Shown: positions 12,588-24,041, counted from the stretch's first letter. The stretch is 64,000 nt of DNA from Promethearchaeota archaeon (GCA_048940645.1 JBHLOI010000009.1:1-64000), one strand, 5' to 3'. The notes: a model not told the origin generated them from the letters alone. Numbers and translations: made by a program.

Positions 12588-13268
12588 TTAAGCTTTTGCC
12601 GCTTTTTTTGCCCTTCTTTTATCTTTCCATCTCCATCCTGTAAATCCCTTACTTTTTTCCTTGGCATATTGTTCTAAAACAACTAAGATTTTTTTTCGCG
12701 ATTTCCTTTTAAAATCTCTACCTGATTCAAATTCATAACTTCGTTCATAATCTGCTCCTTTAAAAATTAGTTTGAAATACACAAATCTTGGACCTAATAT
12801 TATAGGACCTGGTGTTGGTATTACTGTCATTGACTCTCTCTTTGCAATTTCAATGGAATCAAAATCAGCCCAGTCAATTCGAAAATAAGGTTTATGAGGT
12901 ATGTTGATCTCGATATACTTATCAGTAATTGTAAACCTTCTAAGTTTAGACAACCCTCGTAAATAATGCCTTGCCCAAAATATGAAGCCGATCGTTAATG
13001 GCCAAATAATTGGAATTGCAATAAGTCCATATGCACCATATTCAAACGGAATCGCAATTGTTACTAAAACCATAAAAGCAACAAATATTACTATACAAAC
13101 AATACTACCGATTAGAGATCTTTTGTAATGCTCAATAATTTCAAATTTTCCCTCCTCTACATCCGAGAATTTAAATCCACATTCAATACAAAATTGATTT
13201 GAACCAGAATTAACCTGATTACATGAAGGGCAAACTTTTTCTGGATTTTTAATATTCATTTTCTTCAC
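12588..13268 (-). CDS. Zinc-ribbon + 2TM + PH-like beta-domain protein
   Basis: CPSC...FCIECG; two TM helices; FTITDKYIEI...IDWADFDSIEI resembles bacterial PH-like domains. Confidence 0.7.
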   Translation of the reverse strand: MKKMNIKNPEKVCPSCNQVNSGSNQFCIECGFKFSDVEEGKFEIIEHYKRSLIGSIVCIVIFVAFMVLVTIAIPFEYGAYGLIAIPIIWPLTIGFIFWARHYLRGLSKLRRFTITDKYIEINIPHKPYFRIDWADFDSIEIAKRESMTVIPTPGPIILGPRFVYFKLIFKGADYERSYEFESGRDFKRKSRKKILVVLEQYAKEKSKGFTGWRWKDKRRAKKAAKA

Positions 13269-13336
13269 GCTAATTATTTAATTTTAAAAATATGAATAAT
13301 GAATATATAGGGCATAAAAGTAATTAAATCTTTGAT
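13132..13336 (-). repeat. Duplicated promoter + Zn-ribbon coding module, copy 1
   Basis: Nucleotide similarity to 18660-18873, including non-coding gaataatgaatatatag and taattaaatctttgat. Confidence 0.85.
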
Positions 13337-13455
13337 ATTTAGTGTTTAATTTTTTTACTACAGTATCTTGAATTTGCTAATATTTTAAATGTAGATATGC
13401 ATTAAATAAATACATAAATAAATCCAATTTTATCCTTAGGAGCTGAAAATTAGAA

Positions 13456-15129
13456 TTGAGGAAAAGAAGCATTTTTATGATAATAATAGTCTCTATTTCT
13501 ATTATAGTACAGTTATTTGGAATTCCATATTTAGGAATCAAACTTACCTCTCATGATGTAGAGTTTGATTATGTATACGATTGGAATCTTATAGGGACTG
13601 GTGGATGGTATGAGGGTTATAAAGAGACTTTCAGATCTACTGGTACCTATACTGTAGACTTTAGTGGAAATATAGCAAGTGTAATAGGAAGAGTATCTTG
13701 GACATTTACAGAGAATTATTATGATTCATCTAGTAGCAGTGATGAGGTCTATATTTTTACTTATTCACTAATTAATGGTTCTTATTTAACAGGAACAGAT
13801 CAAGAATATAATACATCTGGTATGAATGTATGGTTTCATATTCCTGGGGGCATATCTTCTTCAGAATACTCAATTCTTGACACAAATTATACTTTAATGC
13901 CTGATGCAACTATTTGGGTAGGCTATTTAATGCCTTTCGCTGGAAAGCGTTTGCATTCTGAAGGTATATATTATAGGGACGATGAATATGGTGAATTTAC
14001 CGCAAATTATCAAGTTGATAACTTTTTTACTCCTGAGGGGTATCTTATTGGAGAATTGTACCATGAACAAGATGAGGGTTTTGATGATCTCACAGGATAT
14101 TGGTCTGAATTTAAATTGGATTCCGTTCTTTTTATTAAATCTTCTAACTATCTCAGGCCGTTCAATATTGGTATATACCTTTTAGCATATTGGTTTCCAA
14201 TATTTAGCTTTTTAATTCTATTGTATGTCGTTTATGAACGCTTAAGATGGAGACCAATCATAATAAGCAAAGAATTAAAAGATGGAGAAGTGATTATTGA
14301 ACGAGATATTCCTAGAGGTATTACTTTTTCAGTAGATTCTGCTTATTCCGAGATAATCCCCTCTTATTTAGTTCGGGCAAGATCCCAAGGAAAAAGAATA
14401 ATTTGTGCTCATAATCAAAAAGTATTAGAAGGTATTGGTTTTATTGAACCTAATGGAAAAATTGGTACTTTTTATGGAAGCTATACTCCTGAAATGATAA
14501 AATATGTCAAAGTTAAGTATGCATTTACAGAAGTTTCAAGAAATCCTAATTTCAGAGTTATAGAAAAGTATGATATCTTTCAAATTGAAAATCTTCAAAT
14601 GCGGGATTTTACTTTTGACACTAATTACATCAAACCAACCACTCCACAATATCTCCACAGCATTATGAAGATGGTGGCAAATGAAGATACAGGAAAAAGA
14701 AAATCACGATATGCAAAATGGGTTGAAAAATCTTATGAGGATGATATTTCTGTGATTGCGAAAGCTTCAAGGCAAGATAGTTGGGTAAAATCTGTTCTAA
14801 CGGAGTTATATTACCATAATTATCCAAAACCTGAAATGATAATGGATGAAGTGCTTATGGGTGTAGGTTTTGCAACCGCTGGAGAAACAACTGGATGGTT
14901 ATATGGTCTTTATGTACATCCTGCCTTTAGAAATCGAGGGATTGGGAGAATGCTAGTATTAGCACGCCTTTCTGCTCTTAAGGAAATGGGTTGTGGTTCT
15001 GCAATTACAGAAATAGCAGAATGGAATAGTCCAGCGAAAAAAATATATGAAGATTTAAATGCTGAGAAAGTAGGAAAAATTAATCTTTTGGGAAAAAAGA
15101 TGCCTAAAGTTAAGGTGAGACGATACTGA
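13456..15129 (+). CDS. Membrane protein with extracellular beta-rich domain and cytoplasmic GNAT acetyltransferase
   Basis: N-terminal hydrophobic signal/anchor; TM IGIYLLAYWFPIFSFLILLYVV; acetyl-CoA motif LYVHPAFRNRGIG and NSPAKKIYEDL. Confidence 0.85.
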   Translation: MRKRSIFMIIIVSISIIVQLFGIPYLGIKLTSHDVEFDYVYDWNLIGTGGWYEGYKETFRSTGTYTVDFSGNIASVIGRVSWTFTENYYDSSSSSDEVYIFTYSLINGSYLTGTDQEYNTSGMNVWFHIPGGISSSEYSILDTNYTLMPDATIWVGYLMPFAGKRLHSEGIYYRDDEYGEFTANYQVDNFFTPEGYLIGELYHEQDEGFDDLTGYWSEFKLDSVLFIKSSNYLRPFNIGIYLLAYWFPIFSFLILLYVVYERLRWRPIIISKELKDGEVIIERDIPRGITFSVDSAYSEIIPSYLVRARSQGKRIICAHNQKVLEGIGFIEPNGKIGTFYGSYTPEMIKYVKVKYAFTEVSRNPNFRVIEKYDIFQIENLQMRDFTFDTNYIKPTTPQYLHSIMKMVANEDTGKRKSRYAKWVEKSYEDDISVIAKASRQDSWVKSVLTELYYHNYPKPEMIMDEVLMGVGFATAGETTGWLYGLYVHPAFRNRGIGRMLVLARLSALKEMGCGSAITEIAEWNSPAKKIYEDLNAEKVGKINLLGKKMPKVKVRRY

Positions 15130-16331
15130 CTAAAATTATATCGAAAAATATTTCTAAGTACCATCAATTTTTACTTGATTCAAGAAATATTGTTCTTTAT
15201 GAAACAGAACCTGAATTCCGAAAAATTAATCCTCAATTCCATTCATTAGAAAAATGGATAAAAATATATTTAGGTCCGGCAACGGCAGAATTACATAAAT
15301 TGGATAACAAAACTCAGCACGCCATTAGAGATGAAAACCGAAACGCAATTATTCCAAATTATTATACTACTATTAATGACAAAACCTTTTATTTGTCCGT
15401 AAAAGGATGTGGGGCATATGAGGACATGTTTTTTGGAGGAACGTTAACTCCTTCAAAACTAAAAGATTCTTGTCGAGATTCACAGCTTTATTCCAAATTA
15501 AAAGATCTTTCTACGGGATTAGGATTCATCATGGCCGAATCCTGGATGGGTGAAAGCCCTTATGGAGCCCAAGGACACATTAATGCATTTGACGAATTAA
15601 AATATTCTATGATTGCAAAAAAAGATTCAATAAACGGTGCTCATTTATGTCCAGCTATAGGAGTTGTTCAAATACCCCAAAAAATAGAAGAATTAGCCAG
15701 AAAATTCTTCTGGTTCCGAACTTATAAAAAACATTTTTATCAAGTAATACGGCTTGTTCCATCAAATATAAGGCTATATTTTGAATCGGATTATGTCATT
15801 GCAAAACCAAGTTCAATTTTCTCTCTATTTCAAATTGATACAGTTGAAAAAGTTGAAAAATTTGAACTTAATTTTATTAAAAGTGGGATCGCATTATTAT
15901 CTCTATATTCAAGGTCGGCTAATATTAATGGGAATGAAATAACGGGGATTATTTATCAAGATGTATGGTTTGATAAAGATTGTGTGGTTGCCCCAGATGG
16001 TACCATTTACTTTGCGGATATTGAAGGCCTAATTTGGAAGACTGTTCCACTAAAAGAGATTAATGAAATTCAAAACAAAGAATGGCAAAAACTAGTTTAT
16101 GAATTTCTTTTTGCACTTTTTAAAATTGATTCTTATCGTTATGTTTTACAAGAGAGAGAAACTAATTGGTCTAAACAGCGTGAAGAATTGGCTTTCTTAA
16201 TACATCATGCTTTAAATAAAGACTTATTTTGTTATGCTGAAAATCGTAACAATAATTTAATTATTAATATTGGGGGAGAATCAATTCCTCTAATTGAAAT
16301 TCCAATATTAGAAATGGTGAATAATATATGA
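15126..16331 (+). CDS. Uncharacterised protein-kinase-like/SelO-like protein (probable CTG start at 15126; ORF track starts at TTG 15300)
   Basis: LSVKGCG resembles the SelO LQLKGxG motif; DVWFDKDCVV...IYFADIEG resembles catalytic-loop/DFG motifs; frame open from 15114; AAGGTGA SD 7 nt before CTG. Confidence 0.55.
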   Translation: MTKIISKNISKYHQFLLDSRNIVLYETEPEFRKINPQFHSLEKWIKIYLGPATAELHKLDNKTQHAIRDENRNAIIPNYYTTINDKTFYLSVKGCGAYEDMFFGGTLTPSKLKDSCRDSQLYSKLKDLSTGLGFIMAESWMGESPYGAQGHINAFDELKYSMIAKKDSINGAHLCPAIGVVQIPQKIEELARKFFWFRTYKKHFYQVIRLVPSNIRLYFESDYVIAKPSSIFSLFQIDTVEKVEKFELNFIKSGIALLSLYSRSANINGNEITGIIYQDVWFDKDCVVAPDGTIYFADIEGLIWKTVPLKEINEIQNKEWQKLVYEFLFALFKIDSYRYVLQERETNWSKQREELAFLIHHALNKDLFCYAENRNNNLIINIGGESIPLIEIPILEMVNNI

Positions 16332-17836
16332 AATGTGAAAGAGTATTAGAGATTTTAGAATCTATTAAGAATAAGACAGATATAATTATGTCTTATGAAG
16401 AAGCATCTGAACTATTCCAATATAATTTGATTTCAGAATTTGAATTACAAGGCTCAAGTAAACATATAGAACATGATTTAAAAGGTTTAAAAGGACAATA
16501 TATTCAAATATCATCAGAAATTAGAGACTCTTATAGGAATTTAATCTCCATGGAAGGAGAATATAAACGTTTATCTCCGGTAAAAAAATTCTTATCTTAT
16601 TTTAAGATTGGATTCGGAAGTTCATTGAAAAGTGAAATTGGAGAATTAAAAGTTTTAATTGAAAATAAAGACGATTTGGTAAAAAGTATCAAAAGTCAAA
16701 TTTTAAATTTAAATACTGAAAGAGAAAAAATTGAAAGAGCTGTTAAAGTTAATGGAAAAAGGGTAGTTCTTACACCTTTAGGGGATAGTATGATAGATGA
16801 AATTAAATCTCGTAGAAGATTTTTCTTTAGGGAACTCAGTGAATTAATAGAAGTTATTAATCTCTTAGATGCAGAATTCACTAATATTATTACTCAAGTG
16901 GGTAATATAATGAAAATCAGCAACTTTTCTGCAATATGGGCACTCTATTTAATCAATACAAATAAACTAAACCTTGTAAGTCTTATGAATAGCATCACTA
17001 TGAGTGAGTATGATTATAATAAAGCTCAGGAAAGGATGATGGGACTATCGTTTTATTTAATGAATAATCCAGACGTTATAATCCCTACATCAAATCGAAG
17101 TGCTTCTAGACTCGAAAATGCACTTGAATACAAGTCAAGAGAAAATAATCCTAAAGATGAAATATTTAATATACTTGATCGTACTAATTATTCAATTTAT
17201 GCTGAAAAAGCTATTTCCTTAATTGGAAAGTTATTTGCTATAAAAATTGAAAAATCTCCAGATGCGAGATATGAAGTTGATAAATATTTAGAAAATCTTG
17301 GAATTCTTGTTGATTTTCATTCAAACCTACCTATGATAGGTAAAGAAACTATTCTTTATAGTCATTTAAAGAATTTCACCGGTGAAGAAATGGTACATGT
17401 TCTTTTAATTTTAGCCCTTTCTACAAATTTAGACTCATACAACTATTTTTTCAAAATAATGGAGAACATACCCCAGGGTACCAAATTTTTCTCTGCTGTG
17501 TGTTCATTATTTCCTTGGGATCCCGAAGAAACATGGATGATCATGCTCCGAGCACAATCAAATATTTTAAAAGCCCAGAGTGCAAAATTTATACCTGAAC
17601 TAATAGAGTATTCATTGTTGATGAGTTTAAATCCAAGAATTATATCTATCGAAAATAATTTCTCGCAAGAAGATCTTAATAGATGGCAAAGCCTAATTAT
17701 TCCACTAATCCATTTAAGTAGTTATTCTTATCTTGAGAAAGATTTAGAAACCTATATAAGAAGAAGGCCTTTAGCTTATATCATTGCTCCTAGATACTAT
17801 TTCTACTCTTCATTACATTATCATGTCATCGGATAA
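16328..17836 (+). CDS. Hypothetical protein with N-terminal coiled coil, helical body and aromatic-rich C-terminal tail
   Basis: ATGA overlap with the upstream gene; heptad-like region at aa ~45-140; ends YIRRRPLAYIIAPRYYFYSSLHYHVIG. Confidence 0.75.
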   Translation: MKCERVLEILESIKNKTDIIMSYEEASELFQYNLISEFELQGSSKHIEHDLKGLKGQYIQISSEIRDSYRNLISMEGEYKRLSPVKKFLSYFKIGFGSSLKSEIGELKVLIENKDDLVKSIKSQILNLNTEREKIERAVKVNGKRVVLTPLGDSMIDEIKSRRRFFFRELSELIEVINLLDAEFTNIITQVGNIMKISNFSAIWALYLINTNKLNLVSLMNSITMSEYDYNKAQERMMGLSFYLMNNPDVIIPTSNRSASRLENALEYKSRENNPKDEIFNILDRTNYSIYAEKAISLIGKLFAIKIEKSPDARYEVDKYLENLGILVDFHSNLPMIGKETILYSHLKNFTGEEMVHVLLILALSTNLDSYNYFFKIMENIPQGTKFFSAVCSLFPWDPEETWMIMLRAQSNILKAQSAKFIPELIEYSLLMSLNPRIISIENNFSQEDLNRWQSLIIPLIHLSSYSYLEKDLETYIRRRPLAYIIAPRYYFYSSLHYHVIG

Positions 17837-17926
17837 TTTTTTTGATGATTCTTTCATTAGGAAAGGCGACTGTTAATATGGAAACTAATGAATTCAGCGA
17901 AGAGTTCATGACTTAATAAGCAGTTT

Positions 17927-18793
17927 TTATCTCATGGTGTGTGCACCATAATCCTTAAAATAGCGTTGATCTTTTTTTAATATCTCTTTTTTTATTTGTT
18001 TATTCTTTACTTTCTTTATTTTCTTCTCATATTTTTTTATCAATTTTTCAATTTGCCCTTCTAATCTTTTAATTTTACTATCTGCCGGAACTAACTTTTC
18101 CGCATAGCCTGACTGTCTCAATTTTACCCGACAATATGCAACGACTTTTTTAGCACCACCTTTGACAACGTCGCTTTCTACTCCTGTCAATTCTTTCCCA
18201 TTTAGAAGTAGGGTATGCCTTGGTCTTTCCATGGGTTTTACGTTGTCAACATCCCAATGACTAAGTCCCAGATTTAAATGTTTTAATTTTATAAGGTTTT
18301 CAAGACCTTTAATTGTAACAAAGAGATTTCCTTTAAGGTTTAACCTTTTTAAATTTATCAGATTATTTAAGCCCTGAATTTCTCTTATTTTGTTATAGCT
18401 TAGATCCAAATCAATTAAATTGGATAAGTTTTTTAAGCCTTTTATCTCAGATATTTCATTTCCTCTTAGATCCAATTTTAATAAATTCTTAAGAGTTTCA
18501 AGTCCTTTAATTTCACCAATTTGATTATTACTTAGTTTTAATATTTTTAGATCCGTTAGAGCTTCTAGACCGCTGATCTCGGTGATATCCTTTATCTCTT
18601 TCCCTGAAAGATCAAGAGTTAAAATACCTTCTTTTTCTACTCCTCTATATTCTTTACCTTCAATAATTTCAAATTTTCCAGACTCTACATCTGTGAATCT
18701 AAATCCACATTCGAAACAAAATTGGTATAAGATTGAATTAACCTGATTACAAGAAGGACAAACTTTTTCTTGATTGCTATTATTCATTTTCAC
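17927..18793 (-). CDS. Zinc-ribbon + SDS22-like LRR protein
   Basis: CPSC...FCFECG; repeats of LxLxxNxIxEIKGLExL. Confidence 0.85.
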   Translation of the reverse strand: MKMNNSNQEKVCPSCNQVNSILYQFCFECGFRFTDVESGKFEIIEGKEYRGVEKEGILTLDLSGKEIKDITEISGLEALTDLKILKLSNNQIGEIKGLETLKNLLKLDLRGNEISEIKGLKNLSNLIDLDLSYNKIREIQGLNNLINLKRLNLKGNLFVTIKGLENLIKLKHLNLGLSHWDVDNVKPMERPRHTLLLNGKELTGVESDVVKGGAKKVVAYCRVKLRQSGYAEKLVPADSKIKRLEGQIEKLIKKYEKKIKKVKNKQIKKEILKKDQRYFKDYGAHTMR

Positions 18794-18873
18794 ATTGATT
18801 CTTTAATTTTAAAGTTAGTTAAAAAAATGCGAATAATGAATATATAGAACATAATAATAATTAAATCTTTGAT
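18660..18873 (-). repeat. Duplicated promoter + Zn-ribbon coding module, copy 2
   Basis: Similar to 13132-13336; similarity ends right after codons GKFEIIE. Confidence 0.85.
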
Positions 18874-18904
18874 CTGTATACTATTATTGGAGAAATATTA
18901 AATC

Positions 18905-20062
18905 TTAGAAATCAATAGGTTTACCCACGTAAGCATATTCAAATATTTTTTTGAAATCGTTTTCATCCAAACCCCTCGGATTAAATGGAGTCAAAATGTC
19001 TCTTTTTGCTAACAGTGTTAATTTTTCTAAATTTTTTTTCCATTCATTCTCGTCGTTAATTATTTCTTTTAATGAACTAGGGATTTCAATATTGTGTAGA
19101 AAATCTCGTAAAAAATTGGCTAACATAACAGTTGGATTTTTAATCTCAAGAATATTTATAGTTTTTAAAATTTCGATATAAGACTCAGTACATTTATCCT
19201 TATTAAATTCAATCGTATACGGCAACATTATGCCTACAGTAATACCATGTGGAATATGATAAATCGCTCCCAAAGCATGACCACAAGCATGAGCAAGACC
19301 ACAACTAGAATTTGCCATTCCTATACCTGCCAATGAGGCCGCATTGTGTAATTTTTCCCTTATCTTAATATTATTACTATTATTTTCAAGAATTATAGGT
19401 AGATATTCAGCTATTAATTTAATGGCATGAAGATTTACAGCATCACTGAAATCTGACCTTAACCTACTGGTCATACCCTCAATCGCATGAACCAAAGCAT
19501 CCATGCCTGTTGATGCGGTAAGATTCTTGGGCATTTTCAAGCTTAATTTAGGATCTAGAATAACTGAATGGGGAATTATTTCTTGTGATGCGATTGGAAT
19601 TTTTTGTCCTGTTTCTGAATTAGTAATAATTGCTGCGGGCGTATGTTCAGCTCCAGTTCCAGATGTAGTAGGAATTAAAATTAATCGTGATTTTTGTCCC
19701 AAATTATAAGTCGTTATTGGATTGCATTCATATATTGAATTCCTTTCACTTTCATAAAGAAAATACATCATTTTTGCAACATCCAAAACAGATCCCCCTC
19801 CAAAACCAATAATTAGATCAGGTTTAAAGTCAAGAACTAAATCTTTGCCTTTTAAAATAACTTTGTCTTTGGGATCTGGTTCAACTTCATCAAAAAATAC
19901 AATCTCTTTCTTCTTTAAGAACCTTGTAATTTGTTCCCCAAAAAGATTTTTAACTACTCTATCGGTTATAATTAAAATTTTTGTCTCAGTAACTTTTTTC
20001 AGCTCTCTGAGGGAATTTTCCCCATGGAATATAGTTGGAATTCTTATTTTATTTAAAGACAC
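18905..20062 (-). CDS. Iron-containing alcohol dehydrogenase
   Basis: GGGSVLDVAK, PTTSGTGAE, DALVHAIE, GLAHACGH and IPHG motifs. Confidence 0.92.
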   Translation of the reverse strand: MSLNKIRIPTIFHGENSLRELKKVTETKILIITDRVVKNLFGEQITRFLKKKEIVFFDEVEPDPKDKVILKGKDLVLDFKPDLIIGFGGGSVLDVAKMMYFLYESERNSIYECNPITTYNLGQKSRLILIPTTSGTGAEHTPAAIITNSETGQKIPIASQEIIPHSVILDPKLSLKMPKNLTASTGMDALVHAIEGMTSRLRSDFSDAVNLHAIKLIAEYLPIILENNSNNIKIREKLHNAASLAGIGMANSSCGLAHACGHALGAIYHIPHGITVGIMLPYTIEFNKDKCTESYIEILKTINILEIKNPTVMLANFLRDFLHNIEIPSSLKEIINDENEWKKNLEKLTLLAKRDILTPFNPRGLDENDFKKIFEYAYVGKPIDF

Positions 20063-20184: not shown

Positions 20185-21852
20185 TTAATTAAGTTCCCTT
20201 AAAAACTCTTTACTTATTGAGGAATTAAGGGAATCATAGAAAATCGAGTAATATTTCTGGTAAAATTCTTTCTTTCTGTTCATTATTAACTTTTTTTCTT
20301 TATATTCAGACGTACCTGAACTCCAAAATATCTTCCCGTTTGGAGTTATATCAATTGAGTCGTCTTTCTTAATGATTTTACCCTCCTTAATCACATATTC
20401 TATGCTTTCTAAAGACTTTCTTATCTTTTCAAAATCCTTTGAACTGTTTATTTCATTGATATTAATATTTAGTATATTTAAATCGCCATCTGCATTTTTT
20501 CCTAAATTTCCTTTAATGCTTCCTATGCCCAAGGACTTAGCTGGGCTTGAACGAGTTAAAATTATGAAATCATTAAAGGTAAGTTCTTTATCGTTATTGA
20601 TAATTTTATTATTTCTTACAAAATCCTTGTTCATACTCTCTAAAAACTTATTTCTAACATTTGAACTTAAAAGTAAAATTGCGATTTCAGGTATTTTTTT
20701 GATATGGGAATAATTTGGAAAATTAACCGATAATTGCATTTGCCACATATTATTAATATTAAGAGCCAAGTCTATAGCGTTTGCCCACAAAATACAATCT
20801 GTTTCATTTTGTTTATTGAATGTTCTTAGTGTAGAAAATATATCTCCTTCTGACTCAACTGCAGTTGTAATTACTTTAAAAGGATTTTCAGCTATATACA
20901 AGGAGTTTATTAATCTTCTATCGCTGCTAGTTAAAGGATTAATTGGATCAAACCCTAAAAACCCAAGATCAAGATCATAATCTTGATTCTCATTATAGAA
21001 TTTGATTAAATCTAAATTATCACCATCAATATTGTATGAGGATGCATGAGCAAGATGAAATATCTGTGACCGTTTAATATTCAACTTATTTTTAGGAGTT
21101 GGTATTAAATTTAGAGATTTTATTCGATGTAAGATTTGCTTTAAATTTTCCTTAGCATCATTTTGTTCATAACCTTCTACATGGACGTGAACTGAATGAG
21201 GTAAGCCTAAACTCTCATTATATTTTACCATTTTTTCATAAACATCAATAGGAGAAAAGTTGAACAATCTACCTTTATTTGATAGATCATTTCTTAATTT
21301 TTGAAAATTCCAATTTTCAGCTTCAAAAGGATTATAGACCTTGAAACCAAATCCCTTTGTTTTGAACAATAAATCTGAAAGAAAAGTCGAAGCTTCATTC
21401 ACCATTTCTCGCTGGTATTCTAATTCTAAAGCCCAGATATTACTAATATTCAGTAACATAGCCTTATCTAACACCGGTAACTGTTTAAAGTTGAAGATTG
21501 TTTGTTTTGATAAGGAGGGATATACATTAGCCTCAAGAATAAATGTATAACCATTTAATATATATTGTTTTGCAATATACTCTAAACTTAGGTTATTCCA
21601 ATATTCTTGAAAAGGTTTATGTTTACTACCAAGTAATCGTACCCAATTTATTTGTTGAGATGCTATATGAGAATGAATATCGATAGCTGAAGGAATAACT
21701 GTTTTATTTTTAGCATTTATTTCTTTAATATCATTTTGATTCGAGAACCTTTCTACAATTTTACCGTTTTCAATAAGAATATCTTTAATTTCACCTTCAA
21801 TTTTACTAATGGGATCGAATATAATTCCGTTTTTAACAATTAATTTACTCAT
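20185..21852 (-). CDS. fwdA: Formylmethanofuran dehydrogenase subunit A-like amidohydrolase (divergent)
   Basis: DIHSH, GYTFI, KVYNP, LPHSVHVH, TRSSPAKSLG and KGNLGKNADGD motifs; cluster context. Confidence 0.85.
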   Translation of the reverse strand: MSKLIVKNGIIFDPISKIEGEIKDILIENGKIVERFSNQNDIKEINAKNKTVIPSAIDIHSHIASQQINWVRLLGSKHKPFQEYWNNLSLEYIAKQYILNGYTFILEANVYPSLSKQTIFNFKQLPVLDKAMLLNISNIWALELEYQREMVNEASTFLSDLLFKTKGFGFKVYNPFEAENWNFQKLRNDLSNKGRLFNFSPIDVYEKMVKYNESLGLPHSVHVHVEGYEQNDAKENLKQILHRIKSLNLIPTPKNKLNIKRSQIFHLAHASSYNIDGDNLDLIKFYNENQDYDLDLGFLGFDPINPLTSSDRRLINSLYIAENPFKVITTAVESEGDIFSTLRTFNKQNETDCILWANAIDLALNINNMWQMQLSVNFPNYSHIKKIPEIAILLLSSNVRNKFLESMNKDFVRNNKIINNDKELTFNDFIILTRSSPAKSLGIGSIKGNLGKNADGDLNILNININEINSSKDFEKIRKSLESIEYVIKEGKIIKKDDSIDITPNGKIFWSSGTSEYKEKKLIMNRKKEFYQKYYSIFYDSLNSSISKEFLRELN

Positions 21853-21856
21853 TTAA

Positions 21857-22231
21857 TTATGCCTCCTTTATTTTGTTAATAACTGAATTAAGATCATTAA
21901 TTTTTTCTTCAGTAACCTCGACATCCACTTTCATATTTTTGTATATCAGCTCTGAATTTTCTACTCCCGTTATTTGATTTGACCAGATAGATATTGGCAT
22001 AAGAACAGATCCTTCAGGTACATCTTCATCCTCTACGCCTTTGACAATTATTGTTCCAAAATTGCTTGAAATTTTTAAATTTGGCTTGCTTTTGGGATTT
22101 AATTTATCGAAGTCTTTAGGATTAATTAAAGCTATAGCTAATTTTTCTACTAAGGATTTTCTGTCGCCCAAAGAAAATTCCTTTGATTGATCGTTTTCCA
22201 TGCGTCTTACAGTATTAAGAATGAAATTCAT
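21857..22231 (-). CDS. fwdD: Formylmethanofuran dehydrogenase subunit D-like (molybdopterin dinucleotide-binding fold, divergent)
   Basis: INPKD...ISSNFGTIIV...VPEGSVLMP..WSN; ATG at 22231 follows a GAGGTGA SD (ORF track starts at 22240). Confidence 0.8.
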   Translation of the reverse strand: MNFILNTVRRMENDQSKEFSLGDRKSLVEKLAIALINPKDFDKLNPKSKPNLKISSNFGTIIVKGVEDEDVPEGSVLMPISIWSNQITGVENSELIYKNMKVDVEVTEEKINDLNSVINKIKEA

Positions 22232-22232
22232 T

Positions 22233-23540
22233 TCAATCACCTCTATCAGTCTTAAGTTTTTGAATAATTTGATTTAGTATCTCCTCATCTGTAGGAATCT
22301 TACTTGGTGGGTTTATAATTCTCTTTAATTCGATTGGGATATGATCTAATCTATAAACTAAACCACTACATTCAATTCCAGTTATAGCTGTAGGCAATAC
22401 AATGCTAGCTAGCTGTAAAGTGGCAGAATCACGATTATCTATTAAGATTATTGGTTTTTTAGCTAATTTCGAACTTAAGCTCATAGGAAAATGTGAAATA
22501 GGATCAGTTCCGATAAATATAGAACAATCAAAATCTTCCTTTTCTATTTTTGAAATAATAGTCTCATCCGTTTTGGATATCTGGTTATCTCTGAATTGTA
22601 GAGCACCGTTTTCTCCAAACAGAGATAATGCTACATGGTCAAATCCATTCATATTGAAATGTCCGCCCATCATAACCAGAGTTATTCTTCCCCTTTTTTG
22701 TTTTAAATTAATCATTTGTACTAACTCTAGTAATTCATTGATTAAATTCGAGTTTTTCTGGGGCGTTAACAAACCTTGCCCTACAAAAATCACACCATAT
22801 TCAGCTCCACTTAGATGTTGCAATAATCTTTTCATGTCATCTTTATCAAGACCAGCGACTCCTTCAGAAGGAATACTATCCGCAGCACAACATTCTTCTT
22901 TCAATACTTTAATTAAATCTAAATCTTTTCCTGGTGTTATCCTTAATGCAACATCTCTTACTCCCATAGTATTAAAAGATGCAGTTTTAACAGGATCGAT
23001 TATTATAAGCGTTTTAATTTCTCGTCCTGTCATCCGAAATTTACCTCTAGAAAAAAGTACTTTGTTTAAAAGTCGGGGGATTGATTCAGCAGCATTAAAA
23101 CCCCATAGTAAAATTAAATCCGCTTTATTTATGATTTCTGTAATTGTTGTAAGAGTAATTCCCGAATTAATAGCATTATCTAATACTTTTCCTTGACAGA
23201 TTGAAGCATTAGAATCAATAAATCCATTAATTAATTTTGCTAACTCAATTCCTTTTAATTGAGCTTCACAACTTGAATTAGAAAGCCCATATATTAGTGG
23301 CTTTTTTGAATTTTTTATAAGGTCAACCACTTTTTGTAAAGCATCATCCCAAGATGCTTTTAGAAGGTTTTCATCCTTACGTATTCTGGGACTCAAAATC
23401 CTATGTTGAGAGGTAACTTGGTCAAATTTTTCTTTTCCTTTAAGGCAAGCACCAAATACCTCATCAATGTAAATGCCATCAGTTTTAACAATAATATCAT
23501 CACATAGCAAAGAACAACCAGAACAGACGGATCTTTTCAT
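22233..23540 (-). CDS. fwdB: Formylmethanofuran dehydrogenase subunit B-like (divergent)
   Basis: CSGCSLLCDDI...ACLKG [4Fe-4S] motif; ADLILLWG; GHFNMNG; TAITGIECSG..YRLD. Confidence 0.88.
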   Translation of the reverse strand: MKRSVCSGCSLLCDDIIVKTDGIYIDEVFGACLKGKEKFDQVTSQHRILSPRIRKDENLLKASWDDALQKVVDLIKNSKKPLIYGLSNSSCEAQLKGIELAKLINGFIDSNASICQGKVLDNAINSGITLTTITEIINKADLILLWGFNAAESIPRLLNKVLFSRGKFRMTGREIKTLIIIDPVKTASFNTMGVRDVALRITPGKDLDLIKVLKEECCAADSIPSEGVAGLDKDDMKRLLQHLSGAEYGVIFVGQGLLTPQKNSNLINELLELVQMINLKQKRGRITLVMMGGHFNMNGFDHVALSLFGENGALQFRDNQISKTDETIISKIEKEDFDCSIFIGTDPISHFPMSLSSKLAKKPIILIDNRDSATLQLASIVLPTAITGIECSGLVYRLDHIPIELKRIINPPSKIPTDEEILNQIIQKLKTDRGD

Positions 23541-23576
23541 AAGTAATCACTAAAAGGATATTAATATCAGTATTAA

Positions 23577-24041
23577 TCATACATATTCTATTTTTACTGC
23601 CTCACGAGGGCAATAAGTTTCACAAACTCGGCATTCTCTTTCTCTACCCTCTGCCTCAATTCTTCGGCAATATTTAAGTTCAAGTAATTCACATTTTCCA
23701 CCTTTAACTTGAAATAATTGATGTTTTTCAGGCGGATAGTCGGGAGCTTTTCCACTTAGCGAAGAAGGACAATATCTTGCATTTACGGGACAAATAGTTA
23801 CACAAATTCCACATCCATCACAGAGTTCAGTATCAACATTTATTCTTAATTCTTTTTCTACACCTTCTTCAGAACCAAGCAATTCTTTTAAGGTTTCATA
23901 CTGTTTTTTATACTTTGGTTCTAAAAGTGGAGGGCAATCATCAGCTTTTACTTTACCTTGTAAAAGATCTAAAGCAAAAGCCATACAAGTCTTTCCGCAT
24001 AGTTTACAATTTGTTTTTGGCAAATATTTGTATAATTCCAT
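23577..24041 (-). CDS. Fe-S cluster domain + 4Fe-4S ferredoxin (FwdG-like polyferredoxin)
   Basis: LPKTNCKLCG..CMAFA..CP; CDGCGICVTICP; CRVCETYCP. Confidence 0.85.
   Translation of the reverse strand: MELYKYLPKTNCKLCGKTCMAFALDLLQGKVKADDCPPLLEPKYKKQYETLKELLGSEEGVEKELRINVDTELCDGCGICVTICPVNARYCPSSLSGKAPDYPPEKHQLFQVKGGKCELLELKYCRRIEAEGRERECRVCETYCPREAVKIEYV

Follow-up and report, generated by a model that had tools for sequence, protein, structure and literature searches.

What do three overlapping genes of a Promethearchaeota archaeon do together, and does the chemistry that they encode belong to any described system? The genes lie in a stretch of 64,000 nucleotides (GCA_048940645.1 JBHLOI010000009.1:1-64000; hereafter the window) with a G+C content of ~30%, taken from a genome assembly of 126 contigs with a completeness of 89.6%, and homologues of the three proteins come almost exclusively from Loki-type Asgard metagenome-assembled genomes (MAGs; Promethearchaeota). 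Positions 13456-17836 are filled by three open reading frames, all on the plus strand, as are all features of the module given below. Gene 1 (13456-15129; 557 amino acids from a TTG at 13456) encodes a membrane-bound, receptor-like tandem-GNAT protein, gene 2 (15126-16331; 401 amino acids, CTG start) a new SelO-like enzyme with a protein-kinase fold, and gene 3 (16328-17836; 502 amino acids) a protein that consists of an N-terminal domain with a coiled-coil hairpin, an all-helical domain, and a disordered tail. The best explanation of our results is that the three genes form one functional unit, a protein-modification module of Archaea. Their folds are known; the gene-2 family, the partnership of the three genes, and the signature of the gene-3 tail are new. 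An earlier annotation made from the DNA letters alone (the sequence-only reading) had not recognised a described system in this locus, and we likewise found no account of the module in Pfam, NCBIfam, PADLOC, or the literature searched. More specifically, we propose, with a confidence that is about evenly balanced, that the gene-2 product is catalytically active and, as a nucleotidyl transferase of the SelO-like kind, modifies the tail of gene 3, and that gene 1 is its obligatory membrane partner, be it as sensor, regulator, or co-enzyme.

That the three genes belong together is documented by their arrangement in other archaea. The order of GNAT gene, gene 2, and gene 3 recurs with unrelated flanks in loci L001, L002, L003, and L006, and gene 1 adjoins gene 2 in almost all loci. 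The fused arrangement of the window is found in 55 of 91 loci, and another 30 of the 91 carry gene 1 in split form. Among 98 loci examined, each one with enough flanking sequence contains all three components, with gene 3 located after gene 2 on the same strand, and no fifth conserved gene was found across the triplet loci. In type A, gene 1 is fused (Lokiarchaeia and some Thermoplasmata/Methanomassiliicoccales). Type B comprises gene 2, gene 3, a downstream gene for the ectodomain and transmembrane segment, and a tandem-GNAT gene that is transcribed divergently and encodes 260-290 amino acids; the ectodomain of gene 1 is a separate gene in these loci, which were found in Bathyarchaeia, other Thermoplasmata, and one Nitrososphaerales MAG. 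Gene fission and fusion, as seen for gene 1, are classical evidence of a functional link. Since the triplet is conserved in many genomes, it is not a chance arrangement. The sequence-only reading had proposed a self-contained three-gene unit, with co-location elsewhere in archaea and bacteria as the check, and the three-gene unit is borne out by the recurrence of the triplet in Thermoplasmata, Bathyarchaeia, and Nitrososphaerales.

Co-occurrence is equally strict at the level of genomes. Among 301 Asgard genomes, gene 2 was found in 20, gene 3 in 21, and the gene-1 ectodomain in 20, with all three present in 19. Of the three exceptions, G297 and G273 are interrupted by the end of a contig, and the third (G267), in which gene 1 only was found, is presumed to be cut as well. 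The Asgard carriers are confined to one order, in which they represent two families. In the genus of the window, the module, traced by gene 2, is present in 13 of 27 species, and the three queries matched nothing in several congeners of 100% completeness; the module is thus an accessory, single-copy trait. In the gene-2 tree, which is a quick tree with long branches, the type-B loci lie together on the same side of one branch (SH-aLRT 100), and Bathyarchaeia and the Nitrososphaerales MAG are nested among Thermoplasmata, a topology that suggests transfer of the module between phyla. As an aside on taxonomy, the NCBI titles of L012/L025, L013/L028, and L018/L035 name Hodarchaeota, Hermodarchaeota, Odinarchaeota, and Thorarchaeota, and the genome collection assigns the same genomes to the genus or family of the window; the phylum labels of this batch of MAGs look unreliable.

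Could such an unevenly distributed cassette serve in defence, as the sequence-only reading had offered beside signalling? In an anti-virus or conflict system, gene 1 would be the membrane sensor, gene 2 the nucleotidyl transferase, and gene 3 an effector or scaffold. The patchy distribution among congeneric species, the self-contained cassette with variable flanks, and the transfer between phyla suggested by the gene-2 tree would all suit such a role, yet we consider it quite improbable. The only match in PADLOC 2.0 was a weak one of the LmuC-like coiled-coil type and concerned gene 3 (E value 0.014), with none for genes 1 and 2, and nuclease, protease, pore, and NADase domains are absent. Moreover, the flanks carry housekeeping genes (UvrC, RuBisCO, aIF-2B, aminotransferase, and amidohydrolase) instead of defence or mobile genes, and the single-copy components are strongly conserved in sequence, gene 2 being 60-78% identical among Loki-type genomes. 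Beyond the patchy distribution, we found no positive evidence for defence.

The layout of the operon itself was confirmed. As the sequence-only reading had stated, the genes are joined by overlaps of four nucleotides, each with a GGTGA Shine-Dalgarno-like site 7 nt upstream of the next start. At the first junction, the TGA stop codon of gene 1 (15127-15129) overlaps a CTG at 15126 (CTGA), and the GGTGA site occupies 15114-15118; at the second, the TGA of gene 2 (16329-16331) overlaps the ATG of gene 3 at 16328 (ATGA), with GGTGA at 16316-16320. The gene-2 reading frame opens at 15114 and contains no ATG, GTG, or TTG start before 15300, which calls for a non-canonical start. Comparison of sequences lends good support to a weak start at 15126 that is coupled to the translation of gene 1, because full-length gene-2 homologues align from this position and because the junction is conserved. 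Among 46 distinct junctions (loci with gene 1 upstream of gene 2, from Loki-type genomes and Thermoplasmata), the four bases in frame read CTGA in 17, TTGA in 15, and GTGA in 4 cases, and at Loki-type junctions this tetranucleotide is preceded by the conserved element AAGGTGAG, which also backs the GGTGA site. Across loci L002-L047, the gene-2 start codon switches between CTG, TTG, and GTG at one and the same position (15126 in the window), in Loki-type genomes after the same element. The conservation of a weak start that overlaps the stop codon of gene 1 suggests deliberately low, coupled expression of gene 2. The TTG start of gene 1 at 13456 is backed by an ATG at the aligned codon of L021 (MRKRTIF... 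compared to (M)RKRSIF...), and a run of seven T residues directly 3' of the gene-3 stop codon (17837-17843) is likely to act as an archaeal terminator, oligo-T termination being known from archaea. tRNA or Rfam features were not found in the window.

Which reaction might gene 2 catalyse? Its sequence has no matches in Pfam (even at an E value of 10), NCBIfam, or PADLOC. An alignment-based AlphaFold model is confident (predicted local distance difference test score, pLDDT, 94; predicted template modelling score, pTM, 0.92), and its top match in an exhaustive comparison to 48,161 chains is SelO from P. syringae (6eac_A; Z 13.4 over 261 residues, root-mean-square deviation 4.1). Next come synthetases of the NIS family (SbnC, AcsD, AsbB, and IucA; Z 10.3-11.7 over 265-291 residues), and ordinary protein kinases follow at Z ~9. 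Foldseek also placed YdiU/SelO first (E value ~1e-4), with SidJ among the matches, and the nearest named family in the ESM Atlas is the PF02696 cluster of YdiU/SelO (template modelling score, TM, 0.53). SelO was not recovered by sequence: the gene-2 profile gave chance matches only when compared to PDB sequences, and hhalign against the single E. coli SelO sequence returned a probability of 0.2%. Gene 2 is, accordingly, a separate family of the protein-kinase fold without a link to SelO at the level of sequence profiles. The sequence-only reading, which had noticed kinase-fold-like motifs and labelled the protein kinase/SelO-like, agrees with the model, in which the kinase fold is evident and SelO is the closest structure.

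The motifs shared with SelO carry most of the functional argument. SelO/YdiU proteins (AMPylases-UMPylases of proteins; PF02696; PDB 6eac and 6lna) are the best structural match of gene 2 in the PDB as well as in the ESM Atlas, and combine a protein-kinase-like fold with the lysine of a KGxG motif, the arginine pair of RxxPSxxR, an acidic residue in the catalytic loop, and a DxG-like aspartate, in an order shared with gene 2. Judged over 41 gene-2 sequences, K93, G94, and G96 of the VKGCG segment (15399-15413) are invariant and provide the equivalent of the SelO LKGxG lysine; R209, P212, S213, and R216 are invariant in RLVPSNIR (15750-15773), which has the spacing of SelO RVAPSxxR; and positions 15969-16028 encode a catalytic-loop-like FDKD (D283, K284, and D285 invariant) as well as a DFG-like ADIEG (D298, E300, and G301 invariant). 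The succession of K93, R209/R216, D283/D285, and D298 equals that of K107, R170/R177, N247, and D256 in E. coli SelO, and the second arginine and the catalytic loop are 69 residues apart in gene 2, compared to 70 in E. coli SelO. In SelO, the lysine and the two arginines bind the gamma-phosphate of a flipped ATP, which turns the enzyme into an AMP transferase (PMC8097203). Because the invariant lysine and arginine pair of gene 2 match these gamma-phosphate residues, transfer of a nucleoside monophosphate (NMP) or adenylation would be favoured over phosphorylation. The sequence-only reading had proposed acetylation combined with phosphorylation or AMPylation; the GNAT and the kinase fold on which this proposal was built have been recovered, and the SelO-type motifs would shift the second activity from phosphorylation towards NMP transfer or adenylation.

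Gene 2 also departs from SelO in several respects. It has ~50 more residues between the lysine and the arginine pair, including an invariant ESWMGESPYGAQG block, it lacks the Cys/Sec C-terminus, and it was seen here only in Archaea, always encoded with two fixed partners; canonical SelO was not found in the 301 Asgard genomes. A profile search in 1.84 billion proteins assigned 137 clusters (at 50% identity) to the gene-2 family, and the best 80 of 153 relatives located in genome contigs all come from Archaea. Gene 2 represents a new and rare branch of the kinase-fold superfamily, catalytically intact as judged by its invariant residues. The nearest relative of this branch is the AMPylase SelO, about whose partners in the cell little is known as yet. 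There are also distant paralogues of gene 2 (P0241, P0254, P0282, P0284, and P0298), which are solitary, on contigs with mostly archaeal-type genes, and provide no functional lead. At loci L100, L101, L105, and L107, distant paralogues that score 40-140 bits likewise occur alone on such contigs; one of them follows a pair of peptidase-M16 genes, another neighbours genes for redoxin and HTH_5, and none has a Pfam family.

The kinase fold raises the alternative that gene 2 works as an atypical but otherwise conventional protein kinase, with gene 3 or gene 1 as its substrate, resulting in a two-step signalling pathway reminiscent of receptor kinases. Such an enzyme would make use of the beta3 lysine, the HRD-like D283, and the DFG-like D298, all of which are invariant, and could find Ser, Tyr, and His acceptors in the gene-3 tail. 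However, SelO outranks every kinase in the structural comparison, the SelO-type arginine pair is invariant, and there are no Pfam matches to Pkinase, APH, RIO, or ABC1, which makes a conventional kinase unlikely in our view.

If gene 2 is instead a nucleotidyl transferase of SelO type, its substrate may be encoded by the same operon. The gene-3 model (pLDDT 84) contains a coiled-coil hairpin (amino acids 44-137), inserted in a small N-terminal domain, an all-helical part (~amino acids 170-470), and a tail (amino acids 472-502) with a pLDDT below 50, which is predicted to be disordered. Matches to Pfam or NCBIfam families were not found; VIA-align returned generic coiled-coil hairpins only, Foldseek had no match at E <= 0.001, and a search of the ESM Atlas with the C-terminal part yielded no usable hit. 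Despite its predicted disorder, the tail (...RRRPLAYII-PRYY-SSLHYH-IG; 17738-17833) ranks with the most strongly conserved portions of gene 3. Its last residue is Gly in every one of 69 distinct intact homologues, which represent three deep clades; 65 of them also carry an H-x-H motif within their last 16 residues, and a spacer of 2 to 13 residues separates this motif from the terminal Gly. Loki-type proteins end in SLHYHxIG (tail ...PRYY..SSLHYHxIG), those of type-A Thermoplasmata/Methanomassiliicoccales in THPxHxHTVxxFG, and those of type-B loci in HPAHVHGxGGFxG. The coiled coil and the Tyr/His-rich tail described in the sequence-only reading were both found, although the most telling trait of the tail is not its richness in these residues, which holds, but the H-x-H followed by an invariant C-terminal Gly. 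We also observed that type-B tails (L004 and L055-L098) have Gly-rich spacers, up to GGGVGGGGGG, ahead of the terminal Gly.

Structure prediction of the complex formed by gene 2 and gene 3 gave an ipSAE interface score of 0.55 (best control 0.00) and was rated 'weak support': of 80 solved complexes, 58 attain this mark, as do two of 110 mismatched pairs, and at values of 0.60 or below it is attained by only seven of the 80 and by both mismatches. Contacts agreed to at least 41% between runs, and the pLDDT of the partner was at least 76. The sequence-only reading had named gene 3 as partner or substrate; the linkage data establish it as an obligate partner, and a role as substrate is plausible.

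The third component connects the module to the membrane. Hydropathy analysis (Kyte-Doolittle, window of 19) revealed two hydrophobic segments in gene 1, at amino acids 1-23 and 229-254 when numbered from the ATG at 13477. The first (13477-13545; peak 2.31) is preceded by RKR and may be a signal anchor or a signal peptide; the second (14161-14238; peak 2.15) corresponds to a transmembrane helix. Between them lies an ectodomain of ~205 amino acids (13546-14160), rich in aromatic residues, Ser, and Asp, and presumed to be extracellular. It belongs to no known family: there was no match in Pfam, and the ESM Atlas offered only unnamed clusters of archaeal hypothetical proteins. The cytoplasmic part comprises 290 amino acids and ends in an intact GNAT domain (14689-15126), which scores 42.1 bits against PF00583, well above the curated cut-off of 20.7, and contains the R-x-x-G-x-G segment at 14929-14946, whose R, G, and G are invariant in 24 of 24 aligned sequences from all clades. 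The preceding 140 amino acids (14263-14688) may form a second, degenerate GNAT half without acetyl-CoA loop; the R-x-x-G-x-G segment is absent from this part, and its profile aligned to the GNAT half with hhalign at a probability of 78.5% (E value 1.7e-5, 70 columns), which makes the assignment moderately supported. The architecture drawn in the sequence-only reading, i.e. an extracellular domain, a transmembrane helix, and a cytoplasmic GNAT that is perhaps preceded by a degenerate copy, is therefore in line with the hydropathy segments, the PF00583 match, and the profile alignment. A comparable pairing of an inactive-looking GNAT half with a following active one is known from MshD-like tandem GNATs. 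The best solved relatives by sequence are RimI (E value 5.1e-8), Naa30, and Ard1, all of them protein N-terminal acetyltransferases, whereas the fusion of a GNAT to a transmembrane helix and an ectodomain of ~205 amino acids was seen in none of the GNAT relatives compared here. A receptor-shaped acetyltransferase of this kind would be an unusual route of signalling across the membrane.

The GNAT domain also matches small-molecule enzymes, namely phosphinothricin and aminoglycoside N-acetyltransferases, and the acetyltransferase IucB works together with IucA/IucC in aerobactin synthesis. Taken together with the structural likeness of gene 2 to SbnC, AcsD, AsbB, and IucA, this could be read as a metabolic pathway, in which gene 2 acts on a metabolite in the manner of a NIS synthetase or kinase, the GNAT acetylates it, and gene 3 serves as scaffold or regulator. 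Gene 2, however, has no IucA/IucC match in Pfam and carries the KGxG and RxxPSxxR motifs specific to SelO, genes for monooxygenases, decarboxylases, or transporters are not conserved nearby, and a pathway of this type leaves the obligate gene 3 with its invariant tail, as well as the ectodomain, unexplained. We regard it as hardly probable at all.

We therefore return to protein modification by a SelO-like nucleotidyl transferase and outline how the module might operate. Gene 2 would bind a nucleoside triphosphate, probably in the flipped orientation typical for SelO, and move the nucleotidyl moiety (AMP or UMP) to a protein. The most likely target would be the disordered C-terminal tail of gene 3, which ends in H-x-H...Gly-COOH in all lineages. 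Yang and colleagues are said to have found in 2020 that enzymes of the YdiU type modify Tyr and His. Gene 1 would act as a single-pass, receptor-shaped protein, the ectodomain of which is coupled across the membrane to the degenerate and the intact, RimI-like GNAT. It may either sense a cue outside of the cell and acetylate gene 3 or gene 2 in response, or perform the acyl-transfer half of a two-step reaction. Given that both a candidate substrate and a membrane partner are built into the operon, the chemistry of gene 2 is directly accessible in vitro.

Several points weigh against this proposal. The equivalence of motifs between gene 2 and SelO rests on order, spacing, and fold, and not on an alignment or a residue-level superposition, and the TM-scores between the two are modest (0.3-0.53). 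At the position of the metal-binding Asn of SelO, gene 2 has an Asp (D285), and an HRD-like Asp (D283) is present in addition; gene 2 might therefore catalyse ordinary phosphotransfer instead. The complex prediction gave no interface contacts that would place the gene-3 tail in the active site of gene 2. Finally, the roles assigned to gene 1 and its ectodomain are pure inference.

The tail of gene 3 poses a question of its own, as H-x-H...Gly-COOH might be read as a site for NMPylation of side chains or for activation of the C-terminus. In the latter case, gene 2 would adenylate the free carboxylate of the terminal Gly, and the membrane-bound GNAT would pass the activated C-terminus on to an acceptor, for instance a lipid, an envelope component, or another protein. 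Since the free carboxylate would be the site of this reaction, an invariant terminal Gly is expected, and it is indeed retained across three deep clades even though the length of the preceding spacer varies. The second-best structural matches of gene 2 and one of its Foldseek hits, the NIS synthetases (IucA/IucC, SbnC, and AcsD) and SidJ, are kinase-fold enzymes that adenylate carboxylates, just as gene 2 would, and the location of gene 1 in the membrane fits as well. Gene 2 has no match to these enzymes in Pfam, and both the NIS-type domains at the N-terminus and a calmodulin-dependent architecture are absent; only the kinase-like part aligns to NIS synthetases, and the signature motifs are those of SelO.

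A precedent for C-terminal activation is provided by the microcin clusters, in which MchC/MceJ, described as remote homologues of SelO, cooperate with the acyltransferase MchD/MceI in joining salmochelin to the microcin C-terminus (PMC3281104, PMC7472721). In MceJ-MceI and MchC-MchD, a remote SelO-type enzyme and an acyltransferase thus act on the conserved C-terminal tail of a protein encoded by the same cluster. MceIJ is reportedly ATP-dependent, a finding attributed to work by Nolan and Walsh in 2008. Here, by contrast, the partner is a membrane-anchored, classical tandem GNAT and not a member of the HlyC family (PF02794), gene 1 matching only classical GNAT families; the candidate substrate is a cytoplasmic protein of 500 amino acids instead of a secreted peptide; and siderophore tailoring and export genes are absent, with no further gene conserved across loci. 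MchC was compared by description only.

Other observations speak against C-terminal activation. The GNAT is of the classical acetyl-CoA type, close to RimI and the N-terminal acetyltransferases; gene 3 is a multidomain protein rather than a small tag or peptide; the conserved His, joined in Loki-type proteins by Tyr and Ser, suits modification of side chains equally well; and genes for an acceptor, a protease, or a deconjugase are not conserved nearby. A ubiquitin-independent protein conjugation system, in which gene 2 adenylates the terminal Gly and the membrane GNAT ligates it to its acceptor, is possible in our opinion, albeit doubtful. Should it prove correct, it would be new as a category and would add a third route to tagging via a C-terminal glycine, beside E1-type enzymes and the Pup ligase, with carriers in Asgard and other archaea. 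It would also bring to light a new way of tagging proteins in that lineage of archaea which is closest to eukaryotes.

Is the module confined to these three genes? The flanking genes do encode LRR (LRR/TPR) and Zn-ribbon domains, and the sequence-only reading had considered these opposite-strand neighbours as accessory parts. We rejected this assignment, as such genes are absent beside the triplet even in the closest relatives, and place them outside of the module. In the closest relatives, gene 3 is directly followed by an amidohydrolase gene, located at 20185 in the window, and the triplet is preceded by NIF3, PEMT/ICMT, or methyltransferase genes. Because gene 3 abuts the amidohydrolase gene in these genomes, the LRR/Zn-ribbon and Fe-alcohol-dehydrogenase genes that separate the two in the window (17927-20062) constitute a local insertion; they occupy this place only here, and not in L020 and L021. 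The FwdA-like amidohydrolase and the genes that follow it (20185-24041) are syntenic with the downstream region of L020 and L021. The window also contains a direct repeat of ~210 nt (13132-13341 and 18660-18878; 83-84% identity, spacing ~5.53 kb), each copy of which spans the 5' end, encoding the Zn-ribbon N-terminus, of a gene on the minus strand (12588-13268 and 17927-18793, respectively) together with the sequence upstream of that gene. The repeat looks like a duplicated promoter-plus-Zn-ribbon module. Its two copies bracket the triplet together with the body of the LRR gene, and recombination between them could delete the triplet.

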